A stretch of 64,000 bases of DNA, taken from Candidatus Omnitrophota bacterium. GTDB lineage: Bacteria > Omnitrophota > Gorgyraeia > Duberdicusellales > 4484-171. Positions within the stretch are counted from its first letter, which is position 1, and each line of letters begins with the position of its first letter. This document shows, in pieces, positions 27,311-42,296 of this stretch. A program made the translations under genes and the position numbers. The stretch lies in contig JAIPGM010000002.1 in NCBI GenBank assembly GCA_021735655.1, forward strand, positions 258,747-322,746, read 5' to 3'. The notes under the pieces are model-generated. The model was not told the DNA's origin and did not search any database. It worked only from the letters and a program-made list of their open reading frames with translations.

Positions 27311-27952
27311 CTAACTTCCCTGCTTTACAAAAAATATTAAACTCTCTAACTCACAAGCCATATCAACGTTAGAAACAAATATATTATCAGGAACTTTCAA
27401 GGCAATTGGAGCGAAGTTAAGTATTCCCTTAATATTTGAATCGATTAACTGGTTAGCTATGTCTTGAGCTACTTCAGGCGGCGTAGCTATTATTGCTATT
27501 TTTATTCCATCTTTTTTAATCATTTCACTCAAATTATCAATAGCCTGAACTACGATACCTTTTTTTGTTTTACCAATCTTTTTCTGATCATTATCAAAAA
27601 TTGCAGTAATTTTTATATTAAACTTTGAAAAACCATCGAACCCCAACAAGGCCCCACCGACTCTACCTAGGCCTACCAAAGCAATATTCCAATCAATATG
27701 GGTTCCGACTATTTTTTGGATTTGTCCAATTAAAAAATCTACGTTATAGCCCACACCGCGCTTGCCAAATTCACCAAAATAAGACAAATCCTTTCTAAAC
27801 TGAGACGGAGTTACGTTTAAAAACTTAGTTATTTTATCCGAAGAAATAACTTCAACTCCCTGCTTTTTTATTTTTCGTAAGTTACGTAAATACAGAGTAA
27901 GCCTTCTGATCGTTTCCAAAGAAAAATGTTTCTTGTCTTTACTGTTTTTCAT
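27311..27952 (-). CDS. rex: Redox-sensing transcriptional repressor Rex
   Basis: N-terminal winged-helix domain (RLTLYLRNL...) plus Rossmann NADH-binding domain (IALVGLGRVGGALL); 213 aa. Confidence 0.85.
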   Translation of the reverse strand: MKNSKDKKHFSLETIRRLTLYLRNLRKIKKQGVEVISSDKITKFLNVTPSQFRKDLSYFGEFGKRGVGYNVDFLIGQIQKIVGTHIDWNIALVGLGRVGGALLGFDGFSKFNIKITAIFDNDQKKIGKTKKGIVVQAIDNLSEMIKKDGIKIAIIATPPEVAQDIANQLIDSNIKGILNFAPIALKVPDNIFVSNVDMACELESLIFFVKQGS

Positions 27953-29270
27953 CAGATACTCTAGTATCCCGAGCTATACCTAAATCGGTAGGCGCCCGGC
28001 CTAAAGATTTAAGTAAATTAATAGTCTCAGTAATCTGATCATTAATCTCCGCTTCGCCATAGGCCTTATTAGGATAAATTGCATAATACTTTCGATATTT
28101 ACGCGGAGTTAAATTGAGCATTACCGAATTTCCACCCGAAGACAATCCTTTCTTGCGTGCCTCTAAAGATAAGGTCTCAAAGGCTGTGGTTATAAGAATT
28201 TTAGCCGCTTCTGGATCGATTAAACGAGCCAAAGCAAGGTTTTTTAAAACTTCTTCTTCAGAAGGAGCTTTGCAATTGGCCAAGAGACTATTCGGGTGAG
28301 GCAAAAATGGCCCAAATGAGTACATCTCAGAGCCCAAAGCCTTAGTTAGATAAATATCATTTATCGTATCTTGATTAGTTTGACCAGGCAAACCAATCAA
28401 GGCACCAGTCATAACTAAATACCCTAATTCATGGGCTTTTTTTAGATGATCCAGGCGACTATCTAAAGTTTGGCCAGGATGTAATTTCTCATAGATTTTA
28501 GGATTTGAAGTTTCAAAACGCATCAACAATGCTCTTGCCCCAGCCTGATAAAGCTTAAGCAATCCATCAAGCCCGACTTCACCAAAGCTTATACAAATCA
28601 AAACTGGAACCGTTTCTTTAATTTTTCTTATAATTTCCGCTAGATCATCTATGCTATAGTGTGGGTCTTCTCCCGATTGCAAAACTAAAGCCTGGAAACC
28701 ATACTCTTTAACGGCACCAACTGCCGTCTCAATGATTTCCGCCGCTGACATTCGATAACGCATAAGATTCTGGTTGTCAGCTGAAATACCACAATATTGA
28801 CAACTCTGCTTACAAAAATTAGATATTTCGATTATCCCATGAATACAACATGAATTTTTATGGTACTTTTGACGCAAAAAGTTAGCGGTTCGATAAAGAA
28901 TATCTTGAGCCTCAGGCTTATCTAACTTAAGTAAATAAAATAACTCTTCTTTACTCAATTGAATATTTTCTAAAGCTTTATCTAAAATAAGACTTAGCTG
29001 CCTGTCGATATTTTTTTTGCTAAGATCCAAGCGAGACAATCGTAAGTCCATATCCTGAAGTTCGAAAAAAAGCTCATTCCAAGCTGCCAAGGTCTCCTCA
29101 GCCTCCTTTGGGGAAACTTTTTTAATTACAAACCCGCCTTGAGCCGACACATAATCACCGGGTTTGATATCATAAAACTCATTGATTGCTTTTTTTTCTT
29201 CACCAAAGTAATCAACCAGAACGGTTTTCCCAACTATTTCTTTTACCTTGCCAGGTATTGCATAACACAT
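27939..29270 (-). CDS. HypC-domain (N-terminal) fused to HydE-like (BioB-family) radical-SAM enzyme
   Basis: From the second Met: MCYAIPGKVKEIVGKTVLVDYFGEEKKAINEFYDIKPGDYVSAQGGFVIKKVSPKEAEETLAAWNELF, the HypC/HupF signature (MC-x-A-IP...GDYVLVHVGFAI...EA.ETL). A ~40-aa linker follows, then a HydE-type radical-SAM core (IEISNFCKQSCQYCGISADN; Fe-S/SAM motifs; ~350 aa). A single uninterrupted frame of 443-447 aa. Confidence 0.7.
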   Translation of the reverse strand: MCYAIPGKVKEIVGKTVLVDYFGEEKKAINEFYDIKPGDYVSAQGGFVIKKVSPKEAEETLAAWNELFFELQDMDLRLSRLDLSKKNIDRQLSLILDKALENIQLSKEELFYLLKLDKPEAQDILYRTANFLRQKYHKNSCCIHGIIEISNFCKQSCQYCGISADNQNLMRYRMSAAEIIETAVGAVKEYGFQALVLQSGEDPHYSIDDLAEIIRKIKETVPVLICISFGEVGLDGLLKLYQAGARALLMRFETSNPKIYEKLHPGQTLDSRLDHLKKAHELGYLVMTGALIGLPGQTNQDTINDIYLTKALGSEMYSFGPFLPHPNSLLANCKAPSEEEVLKNLALARLIDPEAAKILITTAFETLSLEARKKGLSSGGNSVMLNLTPRKYRKYYAIYPNKAYGEAEINDQITETINLLKSLGRAPTDLGIARDTRVSDEKQ

Positions 29271-29284
29271 AACAAACTCCAATT

Positions 29285-29527
29285 TTACTCTACATCAAAC
29301 GATAGCACCTGTATCACTGTTCCCGGGAAAAAAGTTAGCTCTAGCTCAGCCTTAGCACAAGGAGTCCCCTCAGCTAAAATTTTAAAGGTTTCTCTAAATG
29401 AATCCTCCTTGATCCCGTTCAGCTCACCGATTTTTATATGTATCTTAGACACTACCTTTGAGCCTTCTTTTTCAGCGTGTTCACAAATTCCTTTAATCAA
29501 TGGTTTTATGATATGGGTTTCGTGCAT
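29285..29527 (-). CDS. hypA: HypA N-terminal (nickel-binding MHE) domain protein lacking the zinc-finger domain
   Basis: Starts MHETHIIKPLIKGICEHAEKEGSKVVSKIHIKIGELNGI, matching the HypA N-domain (MHE Ni-site, ...IGELSGV...). Only 80 aa; no CxxC...CxxC zinc module. Flanking genes leave no room for it. Confidence 0.55.
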   Translation of the reverse strand: MHETHIIKPLIKGICEHAEKEGSKVVSKIHIKIGELNGIKEDSFRETFKILAEGTPCAKAELELTFFPGTVIQVLSFDVE

Positions 29528-29982
29528 GTTTTTACCTCAATAATTAAATTAGTTAATTCCTTTAATGTTTTAGCAACACTTTGTGAAATCTCATCACCAA
29601 ACTCAAGAGTTTTCGGTTGCACCCCTAAAAGAAAAATATCAGCTTCGGTTTCTTTACCCAAAAAATCTAAAAACATCCTTGGTGATAAATCATGAGTAGT
29701 GAATCCCGATTTCACGATATCTTCCTTAACTAAAATCTCATAATCTCCTGGCTCTTTACCAAGATCAACAACATCAACTATTAAAATCGTATTTGGACGT
29801 TCTTTGGTTATTTTGCCAATATAGTTTTCTGGTGCTGAACCAACATCAATACAGGTTGCATCCACTTTCTGGTAAACAGTCTCAATGAACTTAGGACCGA
29901 AAGCATCGTCACCACGCATAATATTTCCTACCCCAACGATAACGACTTTCCCTTTAAAAACATTCCGAAAAATATTATTCAT
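29506..29982 (-). CDS. hycI: [NiFe]-hydrogenase maturation endopeptidase (HycI/HyaD family)
   Basis: VVIVGVGNIMRGDDAFGPKF...DVGSAPENYIG...ILIVDVVD motifs of hydrogenase C-terminal-processing proteases; 158 aa. Confidence 0.8.
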   Translation of the reverse strand: MNNIFRNVFKGKVVIVGVGNIMRGDDAFGPKFIETVYQKVDATCIDVGSAPENYIGKITKERPNTILIVDVVDLGKEPGDYEILVKEDIVKSGFTTHDLSPRMFLDFLGKETEADIFLLGVQPKTLEFGDEISQSVAKTLKELTNLIIEVKTCTKPIS

Positions 29983-30022
29983 AGTGTAAAATAAAATTTA
30001 AATGAAACTGTCTTAGTTGATA

Positions 30023-30634
30023 TTACTCAGCAGTAAGGGTGGTTTCACGTCGACAGCGGGCGCATAGAATCTTAACTCGATCAGAACGCCCATCATCCCT
30101 TAAAGCTGAAACAATATTTTCATCTACAATACCAAGACTTTTAAGATGGGAAAGATAAAGCGTAGGACTTGAGTAGGTAAGCTCACCTAATTTTTGAGAA
30201 ATCCATTTAAGGTGATCTTTGCAGGCTATTACATCGCCGCAAACTTCACAAAGTTGTAGTTCTTTTTCTATTTGTTCTTGGGCTTGAGCGCGGTCAAAAA
30301 ATGATAACTCCCAATCAGTAGATAACTTAATACCTTGCTTATCAGCCAAACAGGCTGCTTCACACTGTCCACAAAAAATACAAGTATCAGTATAATGAAT
30401 CATCAGCCGCTTAGGATCATCTTTATTTTCAGTAATATCCTTATGAGAAATCGCTTCAACTGGGCAAACCTCTTCACAACCGCAACAACCAACACATTTT
30501 TGATCATTAAACTTCGGCTGACCGCGAAAGTTAGGATGAGCCACATGGGCCTCTTTAGGGAACTTTGACGTGTAAGGCCCCTTAATCAATGCCTTGATTG
30601 CTTCAACCAACTCTCTTAATTTTGGCAACTTCAT
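30023..30634 (-). CDS. NuoI/MbhN/HycF-like 2x[4Fe-4S] ferredoxin subunit with C-terminal Cys-rich extension
   Basis: CVGCCGCEEVCP and CIFCGQCEAACL cluster motifs in NuoI arrangement, plus extra CEVCGDVIAC and CARCRRE motifs. Confidence 0.6.
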   Translation of the reverse strand: MKLPKLRELVEAIKALIKGPYTSKFPKEAHVAHPNFRGQPKFNDQKCVGCCGCEEVCPVEAISHKDITENKDDPKRLMIHYTDTCIFCGQCEAACLADKQGIKLSTDWELSFFDRAQAQEQIEKELQLCEVCGDVIACKDHLKWISQKLGELTYSSPTLYLSHLKSLGIVDENIVSALRDDGRSDRVKILCARCRRETTLTAE

Positions 30635-30652
30635 AAATTTATCTTAAAAAAG

Positions 30653-30727
30653 AAGCGTAAAACGTAGTCTAGACTCAATATTCTTGAATCACCCGTGGCT
30701 AAAACTTTTCGTCTACGTTTACGCTTC
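30653..30727 (-). repeat. Intra-operon long-stem inverted repeat (15-16 bp arms, ~44-nt loop) between mrpG-like and nuoI-like genes
   Basis: GAAGCGTAAAACGTAG at 30653-30668 and its complement CTACGTTTACGCTTC at 30713-30727; the right arm overlaps the last codons of the mrpG-like ORF. Confidence 0.35.
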
Positions 30728-31057
30728 TCCTTCCTTATCCTCTTTATATTTATCAATTACACTACCTTCCCAAAGTTTAACCCCGGCCCGATGGGCTCCT
30801 CTGGCTACAGCATGGGCAGCTACCGGCGAGGTTAACAAAAGAAAAACCGCACAAAGAAGCGCCTTAAAGCCCGCGGCAATAAAGCCAACAATTAAAAATG
30901 TTCCAAAAAGAATACTACAAGTTCCTAAAGTAACACACTTGGTGGCTGCTTGAAGACGATTATATACATCCGGAAGTCTTACCAAACCTAAGCAACCAAC
31001 TATATCAAAAGCTAACCCACCGGAAATGAATATCAAACCAATAATATCACTCATCAA
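30719..31057 (-). CDS. Mrp antiporter subunit G-like (MbhC-like) membrane subunit
   Basis: RLPDVYNRLQAATKCVTLG...TSPVAAHAVARGA matches the MrpG/PhaG signature; 3 TM. Confidence 0.6.
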   Translation of the reverse strand: MMSDIIGLIFISGGLAFDIVGCLGLVRLPDVYNRLQAATKCVTLGTCSILFGTFLIVGFIAAGFKALLCAVFLLLTSPVAAHAVARGAHRAGVKLWEGSVIDKYKEDKEGEA

Positions 31058-31442
31058 ACCCTCTTCCCTCTAAATATTTCGAAAGAGCTAAGGTGCTAAT
31101 AAAACTTTGAAGCGCCCAAGCAATTCCAATATCCAGATACCAAGATCTTCCAGTCGAAATAGTTAAAACTGCACAAAGCCCCACAATCATAATCCCTAAA
31201 ATATCAATCGCTACAATTCTGTCGGCTCCGGTAGGACCTTTAGCAATACGATAAAGCGCCAGTACACATCCTAGAATTAGAATGTAAAGTGCCCTCCCAA
31301 CAAGACCACTATAGACGAGATTTTCAGGAAAAAGAAAACCAAAAGGCCTAAAAATAATTAAGCCTAAAACAATACTAAGGGTAGTTGCTCCAAACAGCCA
31401 ATTTAACATCTTTTTGCTTTCAGCTTTTTTCTTTTTAGCCAT
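31047..31442 (-). CDS. Mrp antiporter subunit F-like (MbhB-like) membrane subunit
   Basis: YRIAKGPTGADRIVAIDIL motif typical of MrpF/PhaF. Confidence 0.55.
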   Translation of the reverse strand: MAKKKKAESKKMLNWLFGATTLSIVLGLIIFRPFGFLFPENLVYSGLVGRALYILILGCVLALYRIAKGPTGADRIVAIDILGIMIVGLCAVLTISTGRSWYLDIGIAWALQSFISTLALSKYLEGRGFDE

Positions 31443-31447
31443 AGTAA

Positions 31448-31945
31448 TTATTCAAATATTTTTCTTAATATTTTCTCAAACCGCTCAATAATAACTTTGG
31501 TAGCAGCTTCAGTCTGAGTTTCCTTCACGTCAATCCAATGTACATATAAAACACCATCATCCTTGTCAATATCTACAGTTAAAGTTCCTGGAGTAAGTGT
31601 TATTGAATTCGCTAAAAATGTAAGCGCTGTATCTGTCTTAAGCGTAGTTTTCACCTTAACAATGCCAGGTTTTATCGGTAAATTAGGATGTAGAATCCTG
31701 TAGGCAACATCAATATTTGCTTTAAAACACTCCCATAGAAATCTCGGAAGATAATAAACAAAAAAATACCAGTATCTCAAAGGGTGCTTAAGGACATGAG
31801 GACGTTTTACAAACAAATCTCCGGTTAAAAAAGCACAAAGAGCGGCTGCGAATACACCAATAGCTAGATGCTGCCAATCCGGTACCCAGTTCAATAAGCA
31901 CCATACAACAAAGGCAACTAAAAATAAAACTATTTTTCTTTTCAT
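31448..31945 (-). CDS. Mrp antiporter subunit E-like (MbhA-like)
   Basis: 165 aa with two N-terminal TM helices and soluble C-terminus; position and size match MrpE. Confidence 0.45.
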   Translation of the reverse strand: MKRKIVLFLVAFVVWCLLNWVPDWQHLAIGVFAAALCAFLTGDLFVKRPHVLKHPLRYWYFFVYYLPRFLWECFKANIDVAYRILHPNLPIKPGIVKVKTTLKTDTALTFLANSITLTPGTLTVDIDKDDGVLYVHWIDVKETQTEAATKVIIERFEKILRKIFE

Positions 31946-33441
31946 TGGACTGCTCTGATAATATTTATTGTGTAGTTTTTTGTGCCAAGCAAAACCCCAG
32001 AGGCTTTAAGCAGGAATTGTTCTCTTATCCCCGGAAAAAATAAAAACCCACCTAAAAGGCAAACTAAAACTAAGATAATCATCGAAGCCTTCATGAAAGC
32101 AGGCACTTCAGTAATATTTTCCCACTGTTTCCTAAGATTTCCAAAAAATGCATACTTCATAACCTTGGTAAAAGAAGCAAGGGTCAAAATACTAGCCAAC
32201 ACTGCCCAAAAACCATACCAATACTGGTTGGCCTGAACACAAGCAATAATAATAATTAACTTGCTCCAAAAACCATTAAACGGCGGAATTCCAGCGATTG
32301 ACATAGAAGCTCCAAAAGCAGTAGCTGAGGTAACTGGCATTCTTTGACTTAATCCCCCCATTTTTTTTAAATCTCTGGTTCCGGTTGTGTATTCAACAGC
32401 ACCAGAATTTAAAAAAAGAAGAGATTTGAATATTGAGTGATTGAACAAATGGAATAAGCCTCCGATTATACCTAAAGGAGTGCCCAAACCTATCCCCAAA
32501 ATAACATAACCAATCTGGCTTATTGAATGATAGGCAAGCAAACGTTTCAAATCCCACTGTCCGATAGCCAAAAATACACCAACCACCATTGAGAGCGCAC
32601 CGAGCGCCATCAAAATCATTGAAAGCTGACTATTCACACCTAAAATATTAAAGAATATACGGCAAAGAGTGTATACTCCTAATGATTTAATCAATACCCC
32701 AGAAAGCATAGCTGATATTGGAGCTGGTGCTGAAGGATGAGCATCAGGAAGCCAGGCATGAAACGGCACCAAAGCTGCTTTTAAACCAAAACCCATAAGA
32801 AACAATACACTTACTAATATTAAAACATTTGGGCAGTCGGCTTGAGACAAAACTAAACCCATATCAGCCATATTTAGGGTTGAAGTGCAACTATATAGAA
32901 ATACAATACCTAAAAGAATAAATAATGACCCTACGGTACTCATCAGGGCATATTTAAAGGCGGCTTCAAGCTCATGGCGTTCAGTTCCAAAAGCAACCAG
33001 AGCATAACTAGCAACAGAGGCAATCTCTAAAAAAACAAAAAGGTTAAATATGTCGCCAGTTATCAAAACCCCGTTCATCCCTCCCAACATCAATAGAAAT
33101 AAGGTGTAAAATTTCCATTTAGCGGTGAACTTTTCCATGTAGTTAATTGAAAAAAGAGCTACACAAAAAGCAACTAAATTAACCGTAACTAACATAAAAC
33201 TAGTTAGACCGTCTAAGACAAAAGTTATCCCGATTGGCGGCTTCCAAGATCCAGCAGCATAAACCAACACTCCATGCTCAGCCACAAGTTTTACACTGTA
33301 AAGCGACAAAAATAAAAGAGCTGTTGTGCATAAATTACCAATTAAATCCGGCAGCCATTTACTTTTTTTACCAAACAAAACAGTTAAAAAGGCACCCGAA
33401 AGACAAACTACAACAAAAATTGGTATAATATTAGAACTCAT
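31942..33441 (-). CDS. MrpD/NuoN-like proton-pumping antiporter subunit
   Basis: 499 aa, ~14 TM, conserved antiporter-fold motifs (…AHSSISQIGYV…, NSGAVEY). Confidence 0.75.
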   Translation of the reverse strand: MSSNIIPIFVVVCLSGAFLTVLFGKKSKWLPDLIGNLCTTALLFLSLYSVKLVAEHGVLVYAAGSWKPPIGITFVLDGLTSFMLVTVNLVAFCVALFSINYMEKFTAKWKFYTLFLLMLGGMNGVLITGDIFNLFVFLEIASVASYALVAFGTERHELEAAFKYALMSTVGSLFILLGIVFLYSCTSTLNMADMGLVLSQADCPNVLILVSVLFLMGFGLKAALVPFHAWLPDAHPSAPAPISAMLSGVLIKSLGVYTLCRIFFNILGVNSQLSMILMALGALSMVVGVFLAIGQWDLKRLLAYHSISQIGYVILGIGLGTPLGIIGGLFHLFNHSIFKSLLFLNSGAVEYTTGTRDLKKMGGLSQRMPVTSATAFGASMSIAGIPPFNGFWSKLIIIIACVQANQYWYGFWAVLASILTLASFTKVMKYAFFGNLRKQWENITEVPAFMKASMIILVLVCLLGGFLFFPGIREQFLLKASGVLLGTKNYTINIIRAVQ

Positions 33442-33443
33442 AT

Positions 33444-33779
33444 CTATCCCCGCAACTCTCTAATTTTAGTAATATCAAATGTTTGATACTTTTCATAAAT
33501 TCGCATAGCGATTGCAATAAGCAAAGCTGTTGATGCCAAACCAATAACAATTGAAGTCAAAACTACTGCCTGAGGTAAGGCATCGACCATATTATTAATT
33601 GTTGTGTCTGGTGAATATATCGGAGAACGCCCCTTTATCCGATAAGCAACTAAGATAAATAAAAGATTTACTGCATATTCAGCGATGATAACACCAATAA
33701 TAATCTTAATTATATTACGTTTACGTAAAATACAATAAAGACCAACACAAAAAAGCACCAAACAAAGCAAGTAGATCAT
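33444..33779 (-). CDS. MrpC/NuoK-like small membrane subunit
   Basis: 111 aa, 3 TM, NuoK-like size and hydrophobicity. Confidence 0.55.
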   Translation of the reverse strand: MIYLLCLVLFCVGLYCILRKRNIIKIIIGVIIAEYAVNLLFILVAYRIKGRSPIYSPDTTINNMVDALPQAVVLTSIVIGLASTALLIAIAMRIYEKYQTFDITKIRELRG

Positions 33780-34231
33780 TTTCCTTCGGTTCCTCCATCA
33801 AATTTAAGCAAAGTAAGGGCAATAAATATAGCAAACAAACCGGCCCCGACCTTTAAACTAATTGCAATATTACAAAGTGGAATAATCCCAGCTGAAAAAA
33901 GTCTAAACGGCTCCCCCTTAGGAAGAAAGTTTAAAAAGAAATACCCACCAGTAAACCCCAAAAGGGCAATTGCTAAAAACATTATTGCTCCAAAACCTTC
34001 AAAAAAAGAAATAGCTTTCTTAGGCATTCTTTTTAAAGCCGCGTCTTTACCATAAGCAAGCATTAAATGAATAAAGCTGAGTGCAATAATTACCCCTCCG
34101 GCAAATCCTCCACCGGGGGAAACATGACCATGAGAAAGAATATAAATACCAAAAAGAAGTATTATGCCCACGGTAAGACGAGTAATTGTCTTAACGATTA
34201 CCGACATTCCCTTTTCATGCTCTTTGCTCAT
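33776..34231 (-). CDS. MrpB-like (MbhF/G-like) membrane subunit
   Basis: 151 aa, 4 TM; position between MrpA-like and MrpC-like genes. Confidence 0.4.
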   Translation of the reverse strand: MSKEHEKGMSVIVKTITRLTVGIILLFGIYILSHGHVSPGGGFAGGVIIALSFIHLMLAYGKDAALKRMPKKAISFFEGFGAIMFLAIALLGFTGGYFFLNFLPKGEPFRLFSAGIIPLCNIAISLKVGAGLFAIFIALTLLKFDGGTEGK

Positions 34232-34780
34232 TTATTCATCCTCTGGGTCTACTTTCTCATTAATTTTTTTACGCCCGACCCTGCGCACTAGGGTTAAAAC
34301 ACCTATTACTGCGGTAAATAAAACTGTAGCTTCACCTAAGGTGTCATAGGCTCGATAATCAAGAATAACTGAAGCAACAATATTAGTTGCTCCGGTCTTA
34401 GCTAAGCCTTGCTTAAGATAAGTATCGGCCACCCGCATAATTGGATAACCAAAACGTGGCAAATCACCAATTGCCTTATAGGCTGCAAATAAAAATAAAC
34501 TAACAAAGCCTAAAATAATTGAGGTATTAAGTAACCATCGACCACTAGTTGAAAAAGGTAAATCTTTTTTTAAAGTTGCCCGAATCAAAATGATTAAACA
34601 TAATATCTCAACTACTAATTGAGTAATTGCAACATCGGGAGCTTTGAGAATAATAAACGTTATCGAAAGCCCTAGCCCTACGGCACCGACGGCAATAACT
34701 GAGGAAAGCAGATCTTTAAGCTCAACGGCGACAATTGCCCCAACAATCATAAAAATTAATAAAATATATAGCTCAAACAT
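34232..34780 (-). CDS. Mbh-type small membrane subunit (MbhD/E-like)
   Basis: 182 aa polytopic membrane protein directly downstream of the MrpA-like gene. Confidence 0.4.
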   Translation of the reverse strand: MFELYILLIFMIVGAIVAVELKDLLSSVIAVGAVGLGLSITFIILKAPDVAITQLVVEILCLIILIRATLKKDLPFSTSGRWLLNTSIILGFVSLFLFAAYKAIGDLPRFGYPIMRVADTYLKQGLAKTGATNIVASVILDYRAYDTLGEATVLFTAVIGVLTLVRRVGRKKINEKVDPEDE

Positions 34781-34787
34781 ATTTAAG

Positions 34788-36446
34788 TTACTTTAAAAGT
34801 ATATAAAAAAGTATCCCCATACCTAAAAGACACCAGGACAAATAAGTAGATAAAATGCCATTATGCAAATAACGCAAAATACTGTTAAAGCCAAAAGTAA
34901 TTTTACTACCGACTTCATAAATATCGAATAATTTCTTATTAGCTAAACTATAGATAACCTTTAACAGGCCCAACTCTTTGATTGTGTTATAAAAATCAGT
35001 TCCTGAAACTCTCATCTCGGGATATTTTTCAGTGCTTTCTCCGCCCATAAAAATATTAACCTGGCGACTCTTTGAAACTGTGCCCAAAAGATAAACTATT
35101 AGACCAATGACCATGCCAGCAAGAATCAAAGCCGTAGCTAAACTTGCATTCCAGACTCCGGAAAACTCTACTGGCTGCCAAATAACCGGAAAGATAAAAA
35201 ACTTAAGCGGAAGCCGGTAAGCAAATACACCAAAAACTACACATAGTAAGGCTAAAATTGCTCCCGGTATCCACATCGCTAGCCCAACCTCTTTTTTCTG
35301 ATCTTTACTGAGTGCTTTTACGGTTGTGCTTTCTTGACCCAAAAATACAGCATGAACAAGTTTCATGAAACTTGCCAAAGTTAAGGCACTTCCAAACATG
35401 GCTGAAACTAACCAAACGACCCATAACCCACCACTGTTTTTAGCCGTCTCAATGATACCCTGGTAGATCATCCATTTAGAAACAAAACCATTAAATGGCG
35501 GAACCCCAGAGATAGCAAATGAAGCAATCAAAAAAGTAATAAAAGTAATCGGCATATATTTAGCAAGACCGCCAAGTTTATCTAAATTAGTAGTTTTGGT
35601 CCTTTTTTCTACAGAGCCACTGGTTAAAAATAAACAAGACTTATAAATCGCATTATTCAGCATATGAAATAGTCCACCGGCAATACCGATAATTGTACCC
35701 GTACCAATACCTAAAATCATATAACCAACTTGACTTACCGCATGATAACCAAGGAGTCTCTTTAAGTCATGTTGGACTAAAGCCATCATAACCGCAGCTA
35801 TAATAGTAAAGCTACCGATAAACATCAAAAATGTATTCATGCTTAAACCTAAACGAAACATTTCCAAGGAAATTCTAATTAAAAGATATATTCCCAAAAG
35901 TTTGTCCAAAGAAGCAGGCAAATAAGCCGCAACCGGAGTTGGTGAGTCTTCAGCTGCGTCAGGAACCCAGGTATGAAAAGGCATAGCCCCGGCTTTAGCA
36001 AAAGCTCCGACCGCCAAACAAAGATAGGCAAAAGTAGCCACCTTAGAAGTCAATGGTATTGATATTAAATCCATCTCGAATAAACCGGTAAGTTTCCAAA
36101 TTAAGGCAACTCCCAAAAGCATTAAAGCATCGGTTCCACCAATTATAATAAATGCTTTCTTTGCCGTAGCTGAGCTATTATCCTTTTTACCAAAGCCAAT
36201 TAAAAGATAAAGAAGCAACCCCAAGAATCCCCAGAAAACCATGAACAGAATTAAATTATTGGCAAAAACCACACCCAAAGAAGCAATCAAAGTAAAAAAG
36301 ATATAAAGGTAGTAACGTGAAATTCCACGTTGGGCACGCATGTACCCCATCGAATATACAGTTACCAAAATAGAAAAAAACCAAATAAATATTCCGACAA
36401 ATATCGACAAAGCATCAAATCTAAAATAATTCGCTAAAAAATTCAT
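34788..36446 (-). CDS. MrpA/NuoL-like antiporter subunit (MbhH-like)
   Basis: 552 aa, ~16 TM, NuoL/MrpA family motifs (…HAVSQVGYMILGIG…, WVPDA). Confidence 0.75.
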   Translation of the reverse strand: MNFLANYFRFDALSIFVGIFIWFFSILVTVYSMGYMRAQRGISRYYLYIFFTLIASLGVVFANNLILFMVFWGFLGLLLYLLIGFGKKDNSSATAKKAFIIIGGTDALMLLGVALIWKLTGLFEMDLISIPLTSKVATFAYLCLAVGAFAKAGAMPFHTWVPDAAEDSPTPVAAYLPASLDKLLGIYLLIRISLEMFRLGLSMNTFLMFIGSFTIIAAVMMALVQHDLKRLLGYHAVSQVGYMILGIGTGTIIGIAGGLFHMLNNAIYKSCLFLTSGSVEKRTKTTNLDKLGGLAKYMPITFITFLIASFAISGVPPFNGFVSKWMIYQGIIETAKNSGGLWVVWLVSAMFGSALTLASFMKLVHAVFLGQESTTVKALSKDQKKEVGLAMWIPGAILALLCVVFGVFAYRLPLKFFIFPVIWQPVEFSGVWNASLATALILAGMVIGLIVYLLGTVSKSRQVNIFMGGESTEKYPEMRVSGTDFYNTIKELGLLKVIYSLANKKLFDIYEVGSKITFGFNSILRYLHNGILSTYLSWCLLGMGILFYILLK

Positions 36447-37630
36447 TTTATGCCTAGTTTACTTTTTATCTTTTCGGTTTTACTTTGTGAAAGGCGAACT
36501 AAATCCTCACCGTTATATATTTTTTTACCCTTAGTGTTACGTACCGCCACTCTCTCAGTACAACAATAACAAGGATCAATGGACGCTAAAATTATCGTTG
36601 CATCAGAAATCGTCTCGCCAACCACAGTTGCCTTATAGGTCGGTAAATTCATAAAAGTAGGTGCTCTTACTTTGTGACGAGCCGGTCGATTGGTCCCATC
36701 GCTTTTCACATAATGAAAACATTCACCCCGCGGCGCCTCAATATGACCGATACCTTCACCTGAAGGAATACTTTTAATCTTAGCATCAATTTCTGTATCC
36801 GGAAGGTTTAAAAGGCAATACTTAACCATATCTATCGATTCAAAAGTCTCTAAAATTCTTACTACCGCTTTATCGAAAACATCGCCATTTTTAGTCACAA
36901 TCATATTCCAGTTAAACTGATCATATGCCCCATAAGGAGAATTTTTACGTAGATCTCTGGCCACCCCCGAAGCCCGAGATACCGGACCGAGAGCACAAAA
37001 GTTAATTGCCTCATCCTTAGTGAGGATACCTATTCCTTTAGTCCTAGCATGTAACACCGGGTCATCGATTACTGCCTTTTTAAGCATTTCAAGAGTCGGG
37101 ATAATCGAATCTATCTTTTTTATCGCAAAAGGTATATCTTCTTTTTTTATGTCTCGCCGAACCCCTCCCGGCTTAAACATAGCATAGTTGTTGCGATTTC
37201 CCGAAAGTGCCTCCATAACATCAAGGATTTCCTCACGCAACTTCCAAGCCCACATATAAACAGTATTGTAACCTAAAAAATGTCCGGCAAGACCCAACCA
37301 TAAAAGATGTGAATGAATACGTTCTCCCTCAGCGATAATTGTTCGGATATATTTAGCCCTCATTGGCACTTCTAGAGGGATAACATCCTCAACTGCCCGA
37401 GTATAAGCATAAGGATGACTGGTTGAACAAATACCACAGATTCTCTCAATTACAAAAGTAGATTGGTCGAAGGTTTTTCGCTCAGAAAGCTTTTCAATGC
37501 CGCGATGGTTATAACCAATCTGAACATCGATATCAACAACTGTCTCCCCATCTACAGTTAAGCTGAAAAACTCAGGCTCTTCCTGTAAAGGGTGATATGG
37601 TCCGATTGGAACTATAGTTCGTTTTCCCAT
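36443..37630 (-). CDS. [NiFe]-hydrogenase large (catalytic) subunit, group 4 (Mbh/Ech type)
   Basis: N-terminal L1 motif ERICGICSTSH (RxCGxCxxxH) and C-terminal L2 motif DPCYCCTER (DPCxxCxxR), followed by a ~35-aa extension of the kind removed by HycI-type proteases; NuoD-like fold, 395 aa. Confidence 0.85.
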   Translation of the reverse strand: MGKRTIVPIGPYHPLQEEPEFFSLTVDGETVVDIDVQIGYNHRGIEKLSERKTFDQSTFVIERICGICSTSHPYAYTRAVEDVIPLEVPMRAKYIRTIIAEGERIHSHLLWLGLAGHFLGYNTVYMWAWKLREEILDVMEALSGNRNNYAMFKPGGVRRDIKKEDIPFAIKKIDSIIPTLEMLKKAVIDDPVLHARTKGIGILTKDEAINFCALGPVSRASGVARDLRKNSPYGAYDQFNWNMIVTKNGDVFDKAVVRILETFESIDMVKYCLLNLPDTEIDAKIKSIPSGEGIGHIEAPRGECFHYVKSDGTNRPARHKVRAPTFMNLPTYKATVVGETISDATIILASIDPCYCCTERVAVRNTKGKKIYNGEDLVRLSQSKTEKIKSKLGIK

Positions 37631-38103
37631 TATAATCCTCGATCTCTAATTGATGAGTCGTCCCACTCTTGATAATCGCGTCTCAAAGGATATACACCTT
37701 GTGGCCACTCATCGGGCAAAAGCAACCGCTTCAACTCTGGATGACCGCGAAAATTGACTCCTAACATTTCAGCTATCTCACGTTCAATCCAATTAGCACC
37801 TTCAAATATTGGGGCTAATGAATCTATTTCTAATTTGCTCTTATCCAACTTAACCCGGAAAGAAACTACTAAATTTATATCTTCAAAGGTAAAATGATAA
37901 AGAATTTCTATATGTTTAAATGTATCTACTCCCGAAGCAATATTGAATCTGGCCCCCAAATTTTTAAAAACATAGGTCGCAACCTTAACAATCGCCTGAG
38001 GTTTAATCTCAATATAGACCCGAGTTAAGGTCTTATCGAAAATATCTAAAATATCTTCGTCGAATCTTTTCTTTAAATCTTTAATAACTTCGCTTCTGGT
38101 CAT
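37630..38103 (-). CDS. NuoC/MbhK-like hydrogenase subunit
   Basis: 157 aa with NuoC-like (30 kDa subunit) core motif (FEGANWIEREIAEMLGVNFRGHP). Confidence 0.7.
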   Translation of the reverse strand: MTRSEVIKDLKKRFDEDILDIFDKTLTRVYIEIKPQAIVKVATYVFKNLGARFNIASGVDTFKHIEILYHFTFEDINLVVSFRVKLDKSKLEIDSLAPIFEGANWIEREIAEMLGVNFRGHPELKRLLLPDEWPQGVYPLRRDYQEWDDSSIRDRGL

Positions 38104-38540
38104 TTTGCTTGAGGGTTTCCAGCCCCACTTAATTTATCGATTAACTTAACAACCCCGGCAATAATCGCCTCTGGTTTCGGCGGGCACCCAGGTATATATA
38201 CGTCTACCGGAATAATTTTATCAACTGGCAAAGGACAGTTATAGCTATGAATAAACATACCTCGCGACAAAGAGCACTCACCAACAGCCACTACTACACA
38301 AGGCTTCGGCATCTGCTCATATACTTCTTTAATCCGAGGAATGCACTTTCGATTAGCAGAACCAGTTACTAAAAGCACGTCAGCATGTTTTATGCTTCCG
38401 GCTAAAAGCATGCCAAACCTTTCGATATCAAAGCGTGGGGTTAAACAATCCAATATTTCAATATCGCAATTATTGCAACTACCAGTTGAAAGATGAAAAA
38501 CCCATGGTGACTTGAGTAATGCTTTAAGTTTTATGCTCAT
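38100..38540 (-). CDS. [NiFe]-hydrogenase small subunit (NuoB/MbhJ-like, proximal [4Fe-4S])
   Basis: CNNC...GxCxxxG...PGCPP motifs (STGSCNNCDIE, VAVGECS, YIPGCPPKPE). Likely true start is the internal Met (MSIKLK...), avoiding overlap with the upstream gene. Confidence 0.8.
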   Translation of the reverse strand: MSIKLKALLKSPWVFHLSTGSCNNCDIEILDCLTPRFDIERFGMLLAGSIKHADVLLVTGSANRKCIPRIKEVYEQMPKPCVVVAVGECSLSRGMFIHSYNCPLPVDKIIPVDVYIPGCPPKPEAIIAGVVKLIDKLSGAGNPQAK

Positions 38541-39460
38541 AAACCCTTTAAGGCTAAAATAACTGCGATTATAGCAATAATCAACATTGGCCCCCAAAAA
38601 AATCTTATTGCCTGATCAATTCTAACTCTAGGATTAGTATTACGAATAACGGTGATCAAGGCAACCAAACCAACATACCTCAACACCCCGTATATAAGAT
38701 TTAAGCCGTTTAGTCTTAACCCACCAATAAAAGTAATCATTATAAAGAAAGGCAAGACAAAGAACAACATATTTTTCATAAGTTTGTATACCGCAAGCGG
38801 GGCTCCCGAATACTCAACTAACGGTCCACCAATAATTTCGGTCTCAGCTTCAGGAATATCAAAAGGCACTAAGGCTAGTTTTGCCTGTACACACATAATA
38901 ATTACAATAAAAGCCAAAAACCCCGACCAGCTTCCTAAGATTACGCCATTTTGAGCCTGATAAGTGATAATTTCACCTAAACGCAAGCTAAACCCGCTTT
39001 GAATAACCGGAACTAAAACCGCTAGAATAAATGGCAATTCATAACTTAAAACTAATTTCATTTCTCGTGATGCACCAATACTAGCTAAAGGATTGCCTGA
39101 AGCAAAGCCTCCGATAATTATGCTTATTGAAGGAATAGCCAATAAATAAACTACAACAACAATATCACCAACAAAGGTCCTCAGCGGATTAAAATTATTA
39201 AACCAAAGCACCGTAGACACAACAATAACACTCCCTAAACCAATAATCGGAGCGCTCAAAAAACTAAACTGAGAAGCGCCTTTAGGAACCAAAGTCTCTT
39301 TTCCAAGAAGCTTCACCAAATCAATAAGCGGCTGTAGGATTGGCGGCCCAACGCGATACTGAACTCGAGCGGTAACTTTACGGTCAACCCAGCTAGTTAA
39401 CAAACCAATAATGGCGGTTAACAAGAATCCGAAAATAAAAAGATAAACTAAATAAATCAT
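38537..39460 (-). CDS. NuoH/MbhM/HycD-like membrane subunit
   Basis: 307 aa, 8 TM, NuoH-like loops (…GGPLVEYSGAPLA…, EAETEIIGG). Confidence 0.75.
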   Translation of the reverse strand: MIYLVYLFIFGFLLTAIIGLLTSWVDRKVTARVQYRVGPPILQPLIDLVKLLGKETLVPKGASQFSFLSAPIIGLGSVIVVSTVLWFNNFNPLRTFVGDIVVVVYLLAIPSISIIIGGFASGNPLASIGASREMKLVLSYELPFILAVLVPVIQSGFSLRLGEIITYQAQNGVILGSWSGFLAFIVIIMCVQAKLALVPFDIPEAETEIIGGPLVEYSGAPLAVYKLMKNMLFFVLPFFIMITFIGGLRLNGLNLIYGVLRYVGLVALITVIRNTNPRVRIDQAIRFFWGPMLIIAIIAVILALKGL

Positions 39461-40023
39461 ACTTTTTCTCTATCCCAATGAGTAGAATGTACTATTAAAT
39501 TGTCACCAACTAAAAATGAATCTTTGGTTAATAAATCATCCGAATTTACTAATTTTAATGCTCCGTATGGGCATGATTTTATGCAAAGCGGTTCATTTTT
39601 TTTATCTCTTCGATCAAAACAAAAATCACAATTATGAATTAAATAAGGCACATGCTCAGGATAAATGGTTCCGTAAGGGCAAGCATGAGAACAAGTTTTG
39701 CAACTTACGCAACGCATATTATGCCTAATCAAAAGGTTGTCTTTTTCGGTTTGTTGTTCCAAAGCCTCAAATGGGCAAGCATTAACACAGTGAGGTTCTT
39801 GGCATCTACGACAAACCAAAGCATAAGTTGCCAATTCAGCTACTGAAACTATTCCATTATTTATCGGATCTTGAGTGTGGTAAAAATAGCTGCACTCTAA
39901 CTTACATTTTTTGCATTCTCCGGCCGCACAAATATCAAGATCAACAAAAAGCCGTTGACCACTATCAGATTTAGCTTCGGTATTTAATTTTCCTTGATGT
40001 AGTTGTTCGGCACTTGTATCCAT
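39457..40023 (-). CDS. Polyferredoxin (HycB/CooF-like, multiple [4Fe-4S] clusters)
   Basis: At least four Cys clusters of CxxCxxCxxxCP type (CRRCQEPHCVNACP, CVSCKTCSHACP, CDFCFD...CIKSCP). Confidence 0.65.
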   Translation of the reverse strand: MDTSAEQLHQGKLNTEAKSDSGQRLFVDLDICAAGECKKCKLECSYFYHTQDPINNGIVSVAELATYALVCRRCQEPHCVNACPFEALEQQTEKDNLLIRHNMRCVSCKTCSHACPYGTIYPEHVPYLIHNCDFCFDRRDKKNEPLCIKSCPYGALKLVNSDDLLTKDSFLVGDNLIVHSTHWDREKV

Positions 40024-40030
40024 AATAGCT

Positions 40031-40855
40031 CTAATCCCAAATATTAGGAAAATTCTTTATTTTGTCGTAAGTAAACACTGGTCCATCTTTGCAGGCATAA
40101 TAAGTCCCTAGCCGACAATGACCGCATTTACCAATTCCACAAGACATATTTTTTTCCATTGAAAGATAGATATTCTTCTCCTTAAAACCCAACTCAAGCA
40201 ATTTTTTAGTAGAAAACTTCATGGCGATTGGCGGCCCGCAAACAATAGCTATTGCCTCAGGGCAATTCATATCTAAATCATCCAAAATTGTAGTAACAAC
40301 ACCTACGTTACCTTTCCAATCAGGGCTAGCTTTATCAACAGTAAGTCTTAAATTTAAATCATCTCGCTTTGCCCAGCCGGCTATCTCAGTTTTATAGAGT
40401 AGCTCCTGTGAGGTTTTACAGCCACCCCGAAAAGACAGCTTCTTAAACTCCCCGCTTCGGGCAAAAAACTCATACATCAAACTACGCAAAGGAGCAAATC
40501 CACATCCACCACCGACGACAACGATTTCCTTACCTTTAAATTCATCAATCGGGTAACCAGTCCCAAAAGGGCCTCTCACTCCAATCAAATCGCCTTTTTT
40601 AAGCTGATGAACTTTATCGGTAACCTTGCCAACTTTCATTACCGTGACTTCCATTACATCTCTCACTGATGGCCTCGATGAAGGTGTAAATGGCGCCTCA
40701 CCCACGCCGGGAACAGTTAATTCGATAAATTGACCGGTCTCAAAACCCAAAGGCTCTTTAGGACGAAAACGTATGGTTTTAATCGTTGGCGTTTCGGTTA
40801 TTACATCAAGAACTTCGGCCTCAATCGATCTGTAAGGATTCTCGATTTTATGCAT
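40031..40855 (-). CDS. FAD/NAD(P)H-binding oxidoreductase, hydrogenase/sulfite-reductase gamma-subunit-like (PyrK/AsrB fold) with C-terminal [2Fe-2S] motif
   Basis: FNR-like domains (RFRPKEPLGFETGQFIEL; GPFGTGYP; VVVGGGCGFAPLRS) and C-terminal CGIGKCGHCRLG 2Fe-2S motif. Confidence 0.65.
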   Translation of the reverse strand: MHKIENPYRSIEAEVLDVITETPTIKTIRFRPKEPLGFETGQFIELTVPGVGEAPFTPSSRPSVRDVMEVTVMKVGKVTDKVHQLKKGDLIGVRGPFGTGYPIDEFKGKEIVVVGGGCGFAPLRSLMYEFFARSGEFKKLSFRGGCKTSQELLYKTEIAGWAKRDDLNLRLTVDKASPDWKGNVGVVTTILDDLDMNCPEAIAIVCGPPIAMKFSTKKLLELGFKEKNIYLSMEKNMSCGIGKCGHCRLGTYYACKDGPVFTYDKIKNFPNIWD

Positions 40856-41873
40856 TATCCACCAACTTCTTTAAGACTTTTCGAATATCAATTTTAGCCG
40901 GGCAAGCTGTTATACAACGGCCACAGCCGGTACAAGCATACTCAGCGGCCACCTTGGGAAAAAAATCAAATTTTTTCTCAAACCTATTACGCAATCTCAT
41001 CCAAAGCCTCTCTCGAGGATTGGCTCCGCCAGCAACCCGAGCAAAATCTTTTATCATACAAGAATCCCAAATGCGTAAACGCTCCATCTTGTCTTTATCT
41101 TTTTGATCATACAAAAGAAAACAATGGCAGGTTGGGCAAATTGCATTACAGGCTCCACATTCAACGCAAGTTTTTGCTTCGTCTTCCCAAATTTTAGACT
41201 CATAGTTTTTCTGAACCACATCTTTGAAGCTGCTTTGGTCAGGAACGGTATTTTTACTTAGGTTAGCGTTAGCTTCTCCAGTTATTTTTTCACGCTTCTT
41301 ATCTCTGGTAACAACTAGATCTTCTCGAGTTTGACGAAAAAGAAGAGTATATTGCTTCAGAATACTCTCACCTTTATCGGATCCGCTTTCAACAACAAAG
41401 CCATCATCAACCACAGAAAGATTTAGATCAAAATTATCTTTAGGATACGGTTTTAGACCTAAAGCCGCACAAAAGCAAGTATCAATTACGCAAGTGCAAT
41501 CAGCTGAAATAATAAGGCTATCCTGACGTAACTTTAAATAAAAAGGATCCTGATAATCGGGATTATCAAAAACATAGTCTTGAATTTTAAAACCTTTCAG
41601 ATCACAAGCCTTGACTCCGACAATAGCAAAAGGCTTACTCGGAGACTGCGGAAGATCCGGACTAAAACCAGAAGCTACCTTCTGACGAGCCTTCAAAAAA
41701 AATGATTTTACCGGCTCAAAAGCCCTTACCTCGCCAACAACGAATTCACTAGTCGAGCTATCGAACTTATCGTAAAACCGCTGCTGACCTTTTTTGACCG
41801 GAACAAATACCTGATAATCTTTATTTAGGTTTTCAAGAAATTTAGAAAAATTATCGGAAGAGATATAATACAT
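40848..41873 (-). CDS. Fe-S subunit, sulfhydrogenase-beta/AsrA-like (two ferredoxin-type [4Fe-4S] motifs)
   Basis: CVECGACNAICPTCHC and CTGCGRCITACP motifs; pairs with the downstream gamma-like subunit as in HydBG/AsrAB modules. Confidence 0.55.
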   Translation of the reverse strand: MYYISSDNFSKFLENLNKDYQVFVPVKKGQQRFYDKFDSSTSEFVVGEVRAFEPVKSFFLKARQKVASGFSPDLPQSPSKPFAIVGVKACDLKGFKIQDYVFDNPDYQDPFYLKLRQDSLIISADCTCVIDTCFCAALGLKPYPKDNFDLNLSVVDDGFVVESGSDKGESILKQYTLLFRQTREDLVVTRDKKREKITGEANANLSKNTVPDQSSFKDVVQKNYESKIWEDEAKTCVECGACNAICPTCHCFLLYDQKDKDKMERLRIWDSCMIKDFARVAGGANPRERLWMRLRNRFEKKFDFFPKVAAEYACTGCGRCITACPAKIDIRKVLKKLVDNA

Positions 41874-41919: not shown

Positions 41920-41940
41920 TTTGTGATTTTATTCACAAAG
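41920..41940. promoter_or_regulatory. Perfect TGTGA-N6-TCACA palindrome (Rex/CRP-type operator) upstream of the hydrogenase operon
   Basis: cTTTGTGAttttatTCACAAAg, an 8-bp perfect inverted repeat ~50 nt upstream of the first operon gene. It matches the Rex box consensus TTGTGAA-N4-TTCACAA, and Rex is encoded inside the operon. Confidence 0.5.
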
Positions 41941-42002
41941 TATTAAAGGCTAAATTAACATAAATGCTATAATCTGTCAAATATTTTTTATCTAATCGTT
42001 GA

Positions 42003-42296
42003 TTAGGTAGGTTTTTTAATATCTACATAATTCGTTAGGGTCGGGTTAAACTTAGCCAGAAAAAGCATTATCCCCCAAATTATAATCGTAGCTAAAGCAA
42101 TAACTACCCCCAACAGCAAATCTCTGCCTATATTTTCAGTAACCAGAAATAGTTCACGATTCCAAAGGTGATCGATAAAACCAAATAAGGCACCACCGTA
42201 AAACAATAGGGTTAACCACCAAATTTTTACATTTTTACTTTTATACCAAGCTAACGATGTTGCGGCAGCGCCCAGTAAAGATACAGCATAACACAT
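42003..42296 (-). CDS. Hypothetical small membrane protein
   Basis: 97 aa, 3 predicted TM helices. Confidence 0.35.
   Translation of the reverse strand: MCYAVSLLGAAATSLAWYKSKNVKIWWLTLLFYGGALFGFIDHLWNRELFLVTENIGRDLLLGVVIALATIIIWGIMLFLAKFNPTLTNYVDIKKPT

Follow-up and report, generated by a model that had tools for sequence, protein, structure and literature searches.

We analyzed a 64,000-nucleotide stretch of contig JAIPGM010000002.1 (positions 258,747 to 322,746; assembly GCA_021735655.1) from Candidatus Omnitrophota, called the window below, with a focus on the [NiFe] hydrogenase operon that it carries and on the electron donor of the encoded complex. The region 30023-41873 is a complete hun operon (hunA to hunP), made up of 16 minus-strand open reading frames (ORFs) that are tightly packed or overlapping according to the ORF calls and the Pfam and NCBIfam annotation. 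The other window genes given below with coordinates lie on the same strand. Four modules make up the predicted product, a membrane complex of 16 subunits: HunD, E, F, G, and P form an Mbh/Ech-type [NiFe] hydrogenase; HunH to HunO a full, split Mrp-type cation/proton antiporter; HunC a four-cluster connector of the HycB/CooF type; and HunA and HunB an iron-sulfur (Fe-S) flavoprotein pair of the sulfhydrogenase beta/gamma type. An earlier note on this DNA had read a gene order running from an AsrA-like to a NuoI-like gene, and our ORF and domain annotation of the minus strand reproduced it. The note placed the operon at 29982-41873. That operon is there, while the functional unit reaches further, from a putative promoter and a predicted Rex operator upstream to maturation genes extending down to 25814.

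The hydrogenase module starts with hunD (38537-39460), a NuoH/MbhM-like membrane subunit (Pfam NADHdh 4e-66), and hunE (38100-38540), the NuoB-type small subunit (Oxidored_q6 2e-28). The mechanical ORF of hunE extends to 38597, and the gene probably starts at an internal methionine (Met20, 38540) rather than at the ORF end, because conservation among 78 orthologues begins there, at MSIKLK. The NuoC-like subunit is encoded by hunF (37630-38103; Complex1_30kDa 3e-28) and the 395-residue [NiFe] large subunit by hunG (36443-37630; Complex1_49kDa and NiFeSe_Hases). HunG keeps both [NiFe] motifs intact, CGICSTSH and DPCYCCTER, and bears what reads as a C-terminal extension for cleavage by HycI. The gene of this maturation endopeptidase, hycI, adjoins the operon (29506-29982; Pfam HycI 1e-17, TIGR00142 6e-33). 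Together with the two motifs it indicates a genuine [NiFe] hydrogenase and not an Mbs/Mbx or Ehr-type relative. DPCYCCTER is present in all 120 closest HunG homologues, and CYCC is found in merely 3 of 150 large-subunit representatives at 50% identity; HunG thereby shows the L1/L2 motif pair of Hun (CGIC ... CYCC). Among solved structures HunG is closest to MbhL (5.8e-90), followed by HycE (2e-81) and, at a distance, MbsL (2.5e-47). The ShyA and HydA models gave 46.4 and 30.8 bits against cut-offs of 700 and 880. Mbs/Mbx was rejected as a candidate on both retained CxxC motifs, the encoded HycI, and the weaker match to MbsL than to MbhL. The last core gene, hunP (30023-30634; Pfam Fer4 families), encodes a NuoI/HycF-like protein of 203 residues with two [4Fe-4S] motifs. 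HunP matches the NCBIfam formate hydrogenlyase Fe-S subunit (2e-24) and is closer to HycF (7z0s_F, 4e-16) than to MbhN (6e-9) in the PDB search. Past the ferredoxin motifs it continues for about 80 residues with conserved cysteines (LCEVCG ... CxxC near the C-terminus) that are partly common to Escherichia coli HycF, and this extension may form an extra metal site or an element for docking HunC.

The same system is widespread. An exact-sequence look-up of HunG gave no match, and a homology search returned an NCBI protein with 100% identity to it, encoded in a metagenome-assembled genome (MAG) of Candidatus Omnitrophica. A scan of species-representative genomes confirmed at least 561 relatives of this subunit. 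We used the best 80 of these, at 80-90% identity, whose MAG labels include Omnitrophota, Atribacterota, Fermentibacteria/Aegiribacteria, Hydrogenedentota, Spirochaetota, Elusimicrobiota, Sumerlaeota, and others. The tblastn searches with all window proteins showed the whole gene set to be syntenic across the loci of these relatives. In the set of 50%-identity representatives, the nearest full-length clusters are two at 55-56%, one of them from Kosmotoga, and the next are at 45% or below. Kosmotoga olearia TBF 19.5.1, a cultured bacterium with a complete genome (locus L081), has all 16 genes in identical order, with hycI, hypF, hypC, and hypD behind them. Glass et al. (bioRxiv 10.1101/536078; Environ Microbiol 2021) named this system the Hun supercomplex, HunA-P, and listed Atribacteria, Firmicutes, Omnitrophica, Elusimicrobia, Bacteroidetes, and Kosmotoga as hosts. 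They assigned HunG, with its CGIC/CYCC motifs, to HydDB group 4g, yet distant from the other 4g enzymes. The earlier note implied that the operon was new and named a prior description of identical operons as the finding that would speak against this. Since such operons have already been described, that is essentially what we found: the system is known as Hun (group 4g), and this window adds no new kind of system. In the gene set, the gene order, the CGIC/CYCC motifs, the host range including Omnitrophica, and the Kosmotoga homologue, there is structurally no difference from the Hun of Glass et al. and Bird et al. (mBio 2019). The difference lies in the view of the donor, for which we argue NAD(P)H from the sulfhydrogenase homology and a Rex box.

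The antiporter arm is complete. It begins with hunH (34788-36446), an MrpA-N/NuoL-like subunit of 552 residues (Proton_antipo_M 2e-61; MbhH in the PDB, 6.7e-53), and continues with hunI (34232-34780), an MbhD+MbhE fusion equivalent to the MrpA C-terminal domain (Pfam MbhD and MbhE; NCBIfam MrpA C-terminal regions). Next come the MrpB/MnhB-like hunJ (33776-34231; MnhB 5e-26), the MrpC/NuoK-like hunK (33444-33779; Oxidored_q2 8e-25), and hunL (31942-33441), an MrpD-like antiporter subunit of 499 residues (Proton_antipo_M 4.5e-69). MrpE, MrpF, and MrpG are encoded by hunM (31448-31945; MNHE 2e-49), hunN (31047-31442; MrpF_PhaF 2e-17), and hunO (30719-31057; PhaG_MnhG_YufB 3e-24). These domain matches bear out the full Mrp set and the two large antiporter-like subunits (552 and 499 residues) of the earlier note. 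HunL, whose best PDB matches are MrpD (7qru_D, 7e-84) and MbhH (1.9e-79), retains all canonical charged residues, namely the glutamate of transmembrane helix (TM) 5 and the lysines of TM7, TM8, and TM12. HunH starts about 65 residues into the NuoL/MrpA models, and its nearest solved relatives are MbhH, NdhF, NuoL, and MrpA. It retains the TM7, TM8, and TM12 lysines, and its TM5 glutamate is replaced by glycine (FWGF instead of a WEG-type motif), a change common to at least 70% of 68 aligned Hun orthologues. With the complete charged residues of HunL and the lysine chain kept in HunH, ion translocation, as suggested before, is predicted for the arm.

The position of the NuoI-like gene behind the antiporter genes, which the earlier note regarded as atypical, is in fact the invariant order of the family, in the fetched loci as in K. 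olearia: wherever a locus has the full operon, hunP closes it. The stem-loop that the note saw between this gene and the others is real. It lies between hunO and hunP (30644-30729, minus strand), is followed by a run of six T, and folds with -27.9 kcal/mol (z = -3.69); none of 200 shuffled sequences folded as well. It is not conserved; a comparably stable fold is found in merely 5 of 54 related loci, the nearest relative among them, and we therefore rejected it as a conserved regulatory element. The stem-loop may act as a partial terminator or RNA stabilizer and is a lineage-specific, local feature. In three Spirochaetota-labelled loci (L040, 287-5019; L074, 5725-12267; L075, 34-4666), hunP directly follows hunG with no Mrp genes between, and in L074 an Mrp set, diverged at 43-49% identity, lies upstream on the other strand. 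Because hunG and hunP adjoin in these three loci, the Mrp block appears separable, suggesting either its insertion into an Ech-like H-B-C-D-I order or its loss from one. In one Omnitrophota locus (L029, 11158-13007), 1.8 kb of additional sequence, possibly a further gene that entered the operon, separates hunG from a diverged hunH (39% identity).

HunA, HunB, and HunC bear on the electron donor. The first gene, hunA (40848-41873), encodes a 341-residue Fe-S subunit like AsrA and the sulfhydrogenase beta subunit (Fer4_22 4e-31; NCBIfam ShyB, HydB, and AsrA) and aligns over its full length with the beta subunit of Pyrococcus furiosus sulfhydrogenase I (SHI; PDB 9nez_B, 1.8e-42). HunB (40031-40855), of 274 residues, is a flavoprotein like AsrB and the sulfhydrogenase gamma subunit. 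Its domains for binding flavin adenine dinucleotide (FAD), NAD(P), and the 2Fe-2S cluster (FAD_binding_6, NAD_binding_1, and DHODB_Fe-S_bind) all score above the Pfam cut-offs, and it aligns end to end with the NADPH-oxidizing SHI gamma (9nez_C, 5e-56). The earlier note proposed looking for NAD(P)-binding motifs in this subunit. GGGxGxAPxR is present and, together with the PFTPSS motif of the flavin region and the C-terminal CGxGxCGxC motif, is at least 90% conserved in 64 orthologues. HunB thus has the features of an NAD(P)H flavoprotein of the FNR/PyrK superfamily, and cofactor and nucleotide binding are predicted for it. Its nearest solved relatives are SHI gamma, PyrK, and NqrF. Of the fetched loci, 56 had their upstream flank analyzed, and each of these has the module formed by the beta/gamma pair and HunC.

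HunA and HunB also score just under the cut-offs of the AsrA and AsrB models (134.9 and 243.3 bits), which brings in a sulfur-linked function: HunAB would pass electrons from H2 to polysulfide, elemental sulfur, or a sulfite reductase, making Hun an H2-oxidizing, sulfur-reducing ion pump. Bird et al. mention the possible reduction of sulfur compounds, and the Hyd24-12 genomes, probable carriers of the cluster, are annotated with "sulfhydrogenase". We consider such a function very improbable. Neither the Pfam-annotated genes in or beside the operon nor the genes called in the annotated loci include an AsrC or other siroheme subunit. The [NiFe] site is complete, unlike that of the sulfur-reducing Mbs, to which the large subunit matches at just 2.5e-47, and the dedicated HycI protease and the Hyp proteins indicate hydrogenase chemistry.

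HunC (39457-40023) is a 188-residue ferredoxin with four cysteine motifs (Fer4_11 4e-16; NCBIfam DmsB, HybA, and HydN). The earlier note called it a polyferredoxin; the NCBIfam and PDB matches make it a four-cluster connector of the HycB/CooF/NrfC type. The PDB matches are ArrB, the AOR-associated Fe-S subunit, and HycB3/4 of HDCR, and HunC is the probable electron connector of the complex. Its four clusters could provide a second entry point for electrons, so that Hun would be a hub linking ferredoxin, NAD(P)(H), and H+/H2, either in a confurcation-like manner or, with the hydrogenase as a vent, as an ion-translocating ferredoxin:NAD(P)+ oxidoreductase. Bird et al. permit ferredoxin or NADH as donor, and a 2026 survey, which found homologues of the SHI beta/gamma pair in group 4b clusters, proposed branched electron paths for those clusters with SHI beta/gamma and an Fdh-like subunit. 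The hun operon encodes HunB as its sole flavoprotein, no second flavin or recognized bifurcating cofactor, and no Fdh-like third branch, and we think a hub of this kind improbable.

The published descriptions mostly favor ferredoxin. Glass et al. (10.1101/536078) predicted that HunABC accepts electrons from ferredoxin and mentioned neither Rex nor a flavin. HydDB labels group 4g "ferredoxin-coupled (putative)", and Williams et al. placed the Mrp-linked hydrogenases of Omnitrophota in group 4g with ferredoxin coupling assumed. Bird et al. (mBio 2019) reported in situ transcription of a membrane-bound hydrogenase cotranscribed with an oxidoreductase, with ferredoxin or NADH as donors. In a ferredoxin-coupled Hun, ferredoxin would reduce HunA/HunB/HunC, or directly HunC/HunP, the electrons would reach the [NiFe] site, and H2 would be evolved and ions pumped as in Mbh; the nucleotide site of HunB would then be vestigial or regulatory. 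Besides the prediction of Glass et al. and the database label, the nearest solved large subunit, the ferredoxin-dependent MbhL (5.8e-90), speaks for such a complex, and a large arm with two antiporter-like subunits fits the bigger free energy of ferredoxin. However, Mbh accepts ferredoxin without beta/gamma or HycB-like subunits, and the nearest solved relatives of HunB are nucleotide-dependent. The strong conservation of the FAD and NAD(P) motifs of HunB across phyla argues against a vestigial site. We regard ferredoxin coupling as unlikely, while giving it appreciable weight.

Comparison with known systems places Hun in context. Mbh of P. furiosus (group 4d, 6CFW), which has the nearest solved large subunit, shares with Hun the Mrp-derived subunits (equivalents of MbhA-I) and the NuoB/C/D/H/I-like core. 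Mbh has 14 subunits with one antiporter-like subunit, lacks beta/gamma and HycB-like subunits, and takes electrons directly from ferredoxin, whereas Hun has two antiporter-like subunits and HunA, HunB, and HunC. The gene order of Mbh differs too, with the Mrp-type genes first and the NuoI-like MbhN last. Assignment to group 4d was ruled out by the two antiporter-like subunits (552 and 499 residues) and the HunA, HunB, and HunC genes. SHI (group 3b, 9NEZ) has beta and gamma subunits homologous over the full length to HunA and HunB, including the FAD, NAD(P), and 2Fe-2S parts. In SHI they sit on cytoplasmic group 3 catalytic subunits with no membrane arm, whereas in Hun they serve a group 4 enzyme, probably through the HycB-like connector. 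A group 3b sulfhydrogenase was rejected because merely the beta/gamma pair is SHI-type, the catalytic subunits being of the NuoD/NuoB type of group 4 and eleven subunits being membrane proteins. AsrABC was set aside as well: no AsrC-like gene was found in or beside the operon or in the annotated loci L081 and L083, and the AsrA and AsrB scores are below the cut-offs.

The modular logic of Hun is that of formate hydrogenlyase (FHL; E. coli, group 4a, 7Z0S) and of the CooF-linked CO-dependent hydrogenases, in which electrons run from a dehydrogenase through HycB/CooF, HycF/NuoI, and a NuoB-type subunit to the [NiFe] site. The resemblance of HunP to HycF, the second-best match of HunG to HycE, and the HycB-type HunC underlie this comparison. 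The dehydrogenase slot is filled by FdhF or carbon monoxide dehydrogenase (CODH) in those enzymes and by an FNR/PyrK-type flavoprotein pair in Hun, which adds a full Mrp arm. An FHL of group 4a or a CO-dependent enzyme of group 4b/4c was rejected, as no molybdopterin or CODH gene is found in the operon or its flanks. Clusters termed "Mbh-Mrp-oxidoreductase type", as published for Elusimicrobia, and group 4b clusters with an Fdh-like subunit resemble hun in having AsrA/AsrB-like and CooF-like genes beside Mrp-linked group 4 genes. Those clusters add a molybdopterin oxidoreductase, which the hun operon does not have; it shows the simpler HunABC form. Their authors found the nearest relatives in Omnitrophica and Zixibacteria, and the Saganbacteria clusters with an extra molybdopterin protein were termed enigmatic in their publication. 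Respiratory complex I shares a homologous NuoB, C, D, H, I, K, and L/M/N-like core with Hun and, if NAD(P)H is the donor, the donor too. Its N-module (NuoE/F/G) is absent from Hun, whose nucleotide-binding module is non-homologous (FNR/PyrK type). Since HunG keeps the [NiFe] ligands, the acceptor would be protons rather than quinone.

The upstream region of hunA suggests control by the cellular redox state. A putative sigma-70-type promoter (TTGACA-17 nt-TAATTT; 41952-41980, minus strand) was read by eye upstream of hunA. Only 3 of the 6 positions of its -10 hexamer agree with the consensus, and a consensus scan did not call the site; promoter and terminator matches in that scan of the window were no more numerous than in shuffled sequence. 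A predicted Rex operator, the palindrome TTGTGATTTTATTCACAA (41921-41938), lies 13 nt downstream of the putative -10 element; the start codon of hunA follows after another 48 nt. It is one mismatch from the consensus type searched, TTGTGAA-N4-TTCACAA, and is the single site with at most one mismatch in the 64 kb window, where 0.01 would be expected by chance. The same box stands upstream of hunA in 14 of 56 loci and also in K. olearia. In 20 loci a rex gene is found immediately upstream of hunA, with the box 28-91 nt upstream of rex in 14 of the 20. The window itself encodes Rex, a redox-sensing (NADH/NAD+) transcriptional repressor, at 27311-27952 (NCBIfam Rex 8e-77, above the cut-off; Put_DNA-bind_N and CoA_binding), inside the operon block between two maturation genes, as in L001, L008, and L083. 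With operator and rex gene present, hun is a predicted member of the Rex regulon, and accumulation of NADH would be expected to de-repress the operon. We found no association of Rex with Hun in the Hun literature searched.

Expression in K. olearia bears on the same question. In cells grown on pyruvate, the hun genes Kole_0560-0571, part of the operon Kole_0560-0575, reached RPKM values (reads per kilobase per million mapped reads) of 37-204, against about 1900-2600 for the Fe-only hydrogenase. Because pyruvate oxidation presumably reduces ferredoxin and not NAD+, yielding no NADH, the low expression loosely fits Rex repression and a role linked to NAD(P)H. If pyruvate is taken as a ferredoxin-only substrate, the poor expression of these genes counts against ferredoxin as the donor of Hun.

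We propose, with a probability of roughly 0.55, that Hun is a reversible NAD(P)H:H+ oxidoreductase coupled to a Na+/H+ gradient. The earlier note suggested NAD(P)H, rather than ferredoxin alone, as redox partner. The homology of HunA and HunB to SHI, the conserved motifs, and the Rex operator indicate that it may well be, while ferredoxin keeps a share of the probability as donor. In the proposed mechanism, HunB would bind FAD and exchange hydride with NAD(P)H. From the [2Fe-2S] cluster of HunB, electrons would then pass to HunA with its [4Fe-4S] clusters and on through HunC (four clusters), HunP (two), and HunE (one) to HunG, which holds the [NiFe] site. At the HunG/HunE-HunD interface, the reduction of protons or oxidation of H2 would drive, or be driven by, ion movement through the HunD/HunH/HunL/Mrp membrane arm. 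With NAD(P)H at a standard potential of -320 mV and H2 at -414 mV, NAD(P)H-dependent H2 evolution is endergonic by 18 kJ/mol at 1 bar H2 and becomes exergonic by roughly 5-10 kJ/mol at 1-10 Pa. At such H2 pressures, typical of sediment, Hun could save a small amount of energy; when H2 is higher, the venting of NAD(P)H electrons could be pushed by the ion gradient. On this basis Hun would be a functional analogue of complex I with a non-homologous NAD(P)H module, reducing protons instead of quinone, and the published ferredoxin assignment would be wrong; we put this wider claim at even odds.

Several points weigh against NAD(P)H as the donor. Hun complexes are biochemically uncharacterized, and the wiring from cluster to cluster follows by analogy from the homology to FHL and SHI. 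Rex regulons in anaerobes include ferredoxin-dependent hydrogenases too, and the Rex box is therefore a link to redox balance and not to the identity of the donor. For a reaction of only a few kJ/mol, two antiporter-like subunits together with the full Mrp set seem too large, which favors a stronger donor such as ferredoxin, or the gradient-consuming direction. The preference for NADH or NADPH is not readable from the HunB sequence: the putative 2'-phosphate-binding segment is FRGGCK in HunB and INTARY in SHI gamma, a difference that is not diagnostic. The published views stand on this side as well, with ferredoxin predicted via HunABC by Glass et al. (10.1101/536078) and either ferredoxin or NADH allowed by Bird et al.

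The maturation genes downstream of hunP are unusual. Behind hycI lies a hypA-like gene (29285-29527) whose 80-residue product starts with MHE and covers the N-terminal nickel-binding part (TIGR00100 1.8e-12, model positions 1-68 of 116); such a gene is found downstream of hycI in most loci. It is followed by a hypC-hydE fusion (27939-29270), in which a HypC domain with the start MCYAIP is joined to a HydE-like radical SAM domain (Pfam HupF_HypC and Radical_SAM). The fusion scored 248.9 bits against TIGR03956 HydE, with a cut-off of 254.6. The fusion is widespread: each of the 120 homologues listed spans 87% or more of the query, and 118 of them have both Pfam domains and 112 the MCYAIP start. 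Beyond rex, a hydG-like radical SAM tyrosine lyase is encoded at 25814-27310 (TIGR03955 448.5 bits, cut-off 312; PDB 4wcx 4e-128). Its C-terminal cluster motif is altered from CTACYRMGRTGDRF to CTAGYRCGRTGECI in the 4wcx alignment; the CTACYR of Thermoanaerobacter italicus HydG corresponds to CTAGYRC in the HydG homologues of the window and L069.

After hunP-hycI-hypA the loci are of two types, apparently exclusive, as they do not co-occur in the fetched loci. The first type continues with hypF (often its C-terminal half alone), hypC, and hypD, as in Kosmotoga. The second has the HypC-HydE fusion and comprises the window, 12 loci of the scan (L001, L008, L011, L014, L019, L020, L029, L031, L038, L059, L060, and L069), and the separately fetched L083. 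Of the 13 other loci, 9 have a HydG homologue behind the fusion, as does the window, with rex between the two genes in most. No HydG was detected in L029, L038, and L059, and L060 gave a weak partial match. We found no motifs of hydA (H-cluster), hypB, or hypD in six frames of the 64 kb window, no tblastn match of Kosmotoga HypF and HypD to it, and no HydF-like annotation among the window ORFs scanned. Thus, chemistry of the HydG/HydE type, making CO and CN from tyrosine, may feed the [NiFe] cofactor through HypC. A full-text literature search returned no paper on a HypC-HydE fusion, and the fusion with a variant HydG in place of hypF, hypC, and hypD is more novel than the operon itself. As a separate observation, the HypF homologue downstream of hycI matches just residues 400-739 or so of Kosmotoga HypF in many Hun loci (L005, L007, L009, L016, L017, L021, L025, L027, and others). 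A protein of this extent would be without the acylphosphatase and zinc-finger parts.

The surroundings of the operon appear unrelated to it. By Pfam annotation, the upstream flank holds glycosyltransferases of the lipopolysaccharide core, and unrelated housekeeping genes lie further downstream. No hidden partner genes for hun were found among the annotated ORFs of the window flanks. Just upstream of the promoter and Rex box, a 97-residue ORF (42003-42296) looks by eye like a three-helix membrane protein. It has no Pfam match and is conserved at 52-63% identity in at least 7 related loci, and its homologue in L008 is directly upstream of hunA. Far from the operon, at 4184-7393, lies a gene for an elongation factor G-like protein of 1069 residues. 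Its GTPase domain starts at residue 382, behind an N-terminal extension of about 380 residues without a Pfam match, and the match is stretched, with 274 residues over a 188-position model.

Two points are worth carrying forward, the donor of Hun and the unusual maturation genes. Since K. olearia, which has this operon too, is in culture, the donor question can be put to the test. Hun-type operons are abundant and common in uncultured sediment bacteria, and their hosts dominate deep, energy-limited sediments. The ATP yield and H2 threshold predicted for their fermentations depend on whether the donor is ferredoxin or NAD(P)H, and with them models of carbon turnover in the subsurface. With NAD(P)H as donor, Hun would be an independent evolutionary solution to the step from a hydrogenase to an NADH-driven pump. 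A Rex-controlled Hun would then let energy-starved fermenters of several candidate phyla vent NAD(P)H as H2 while exchanging energy with a sodium/proton gradient.

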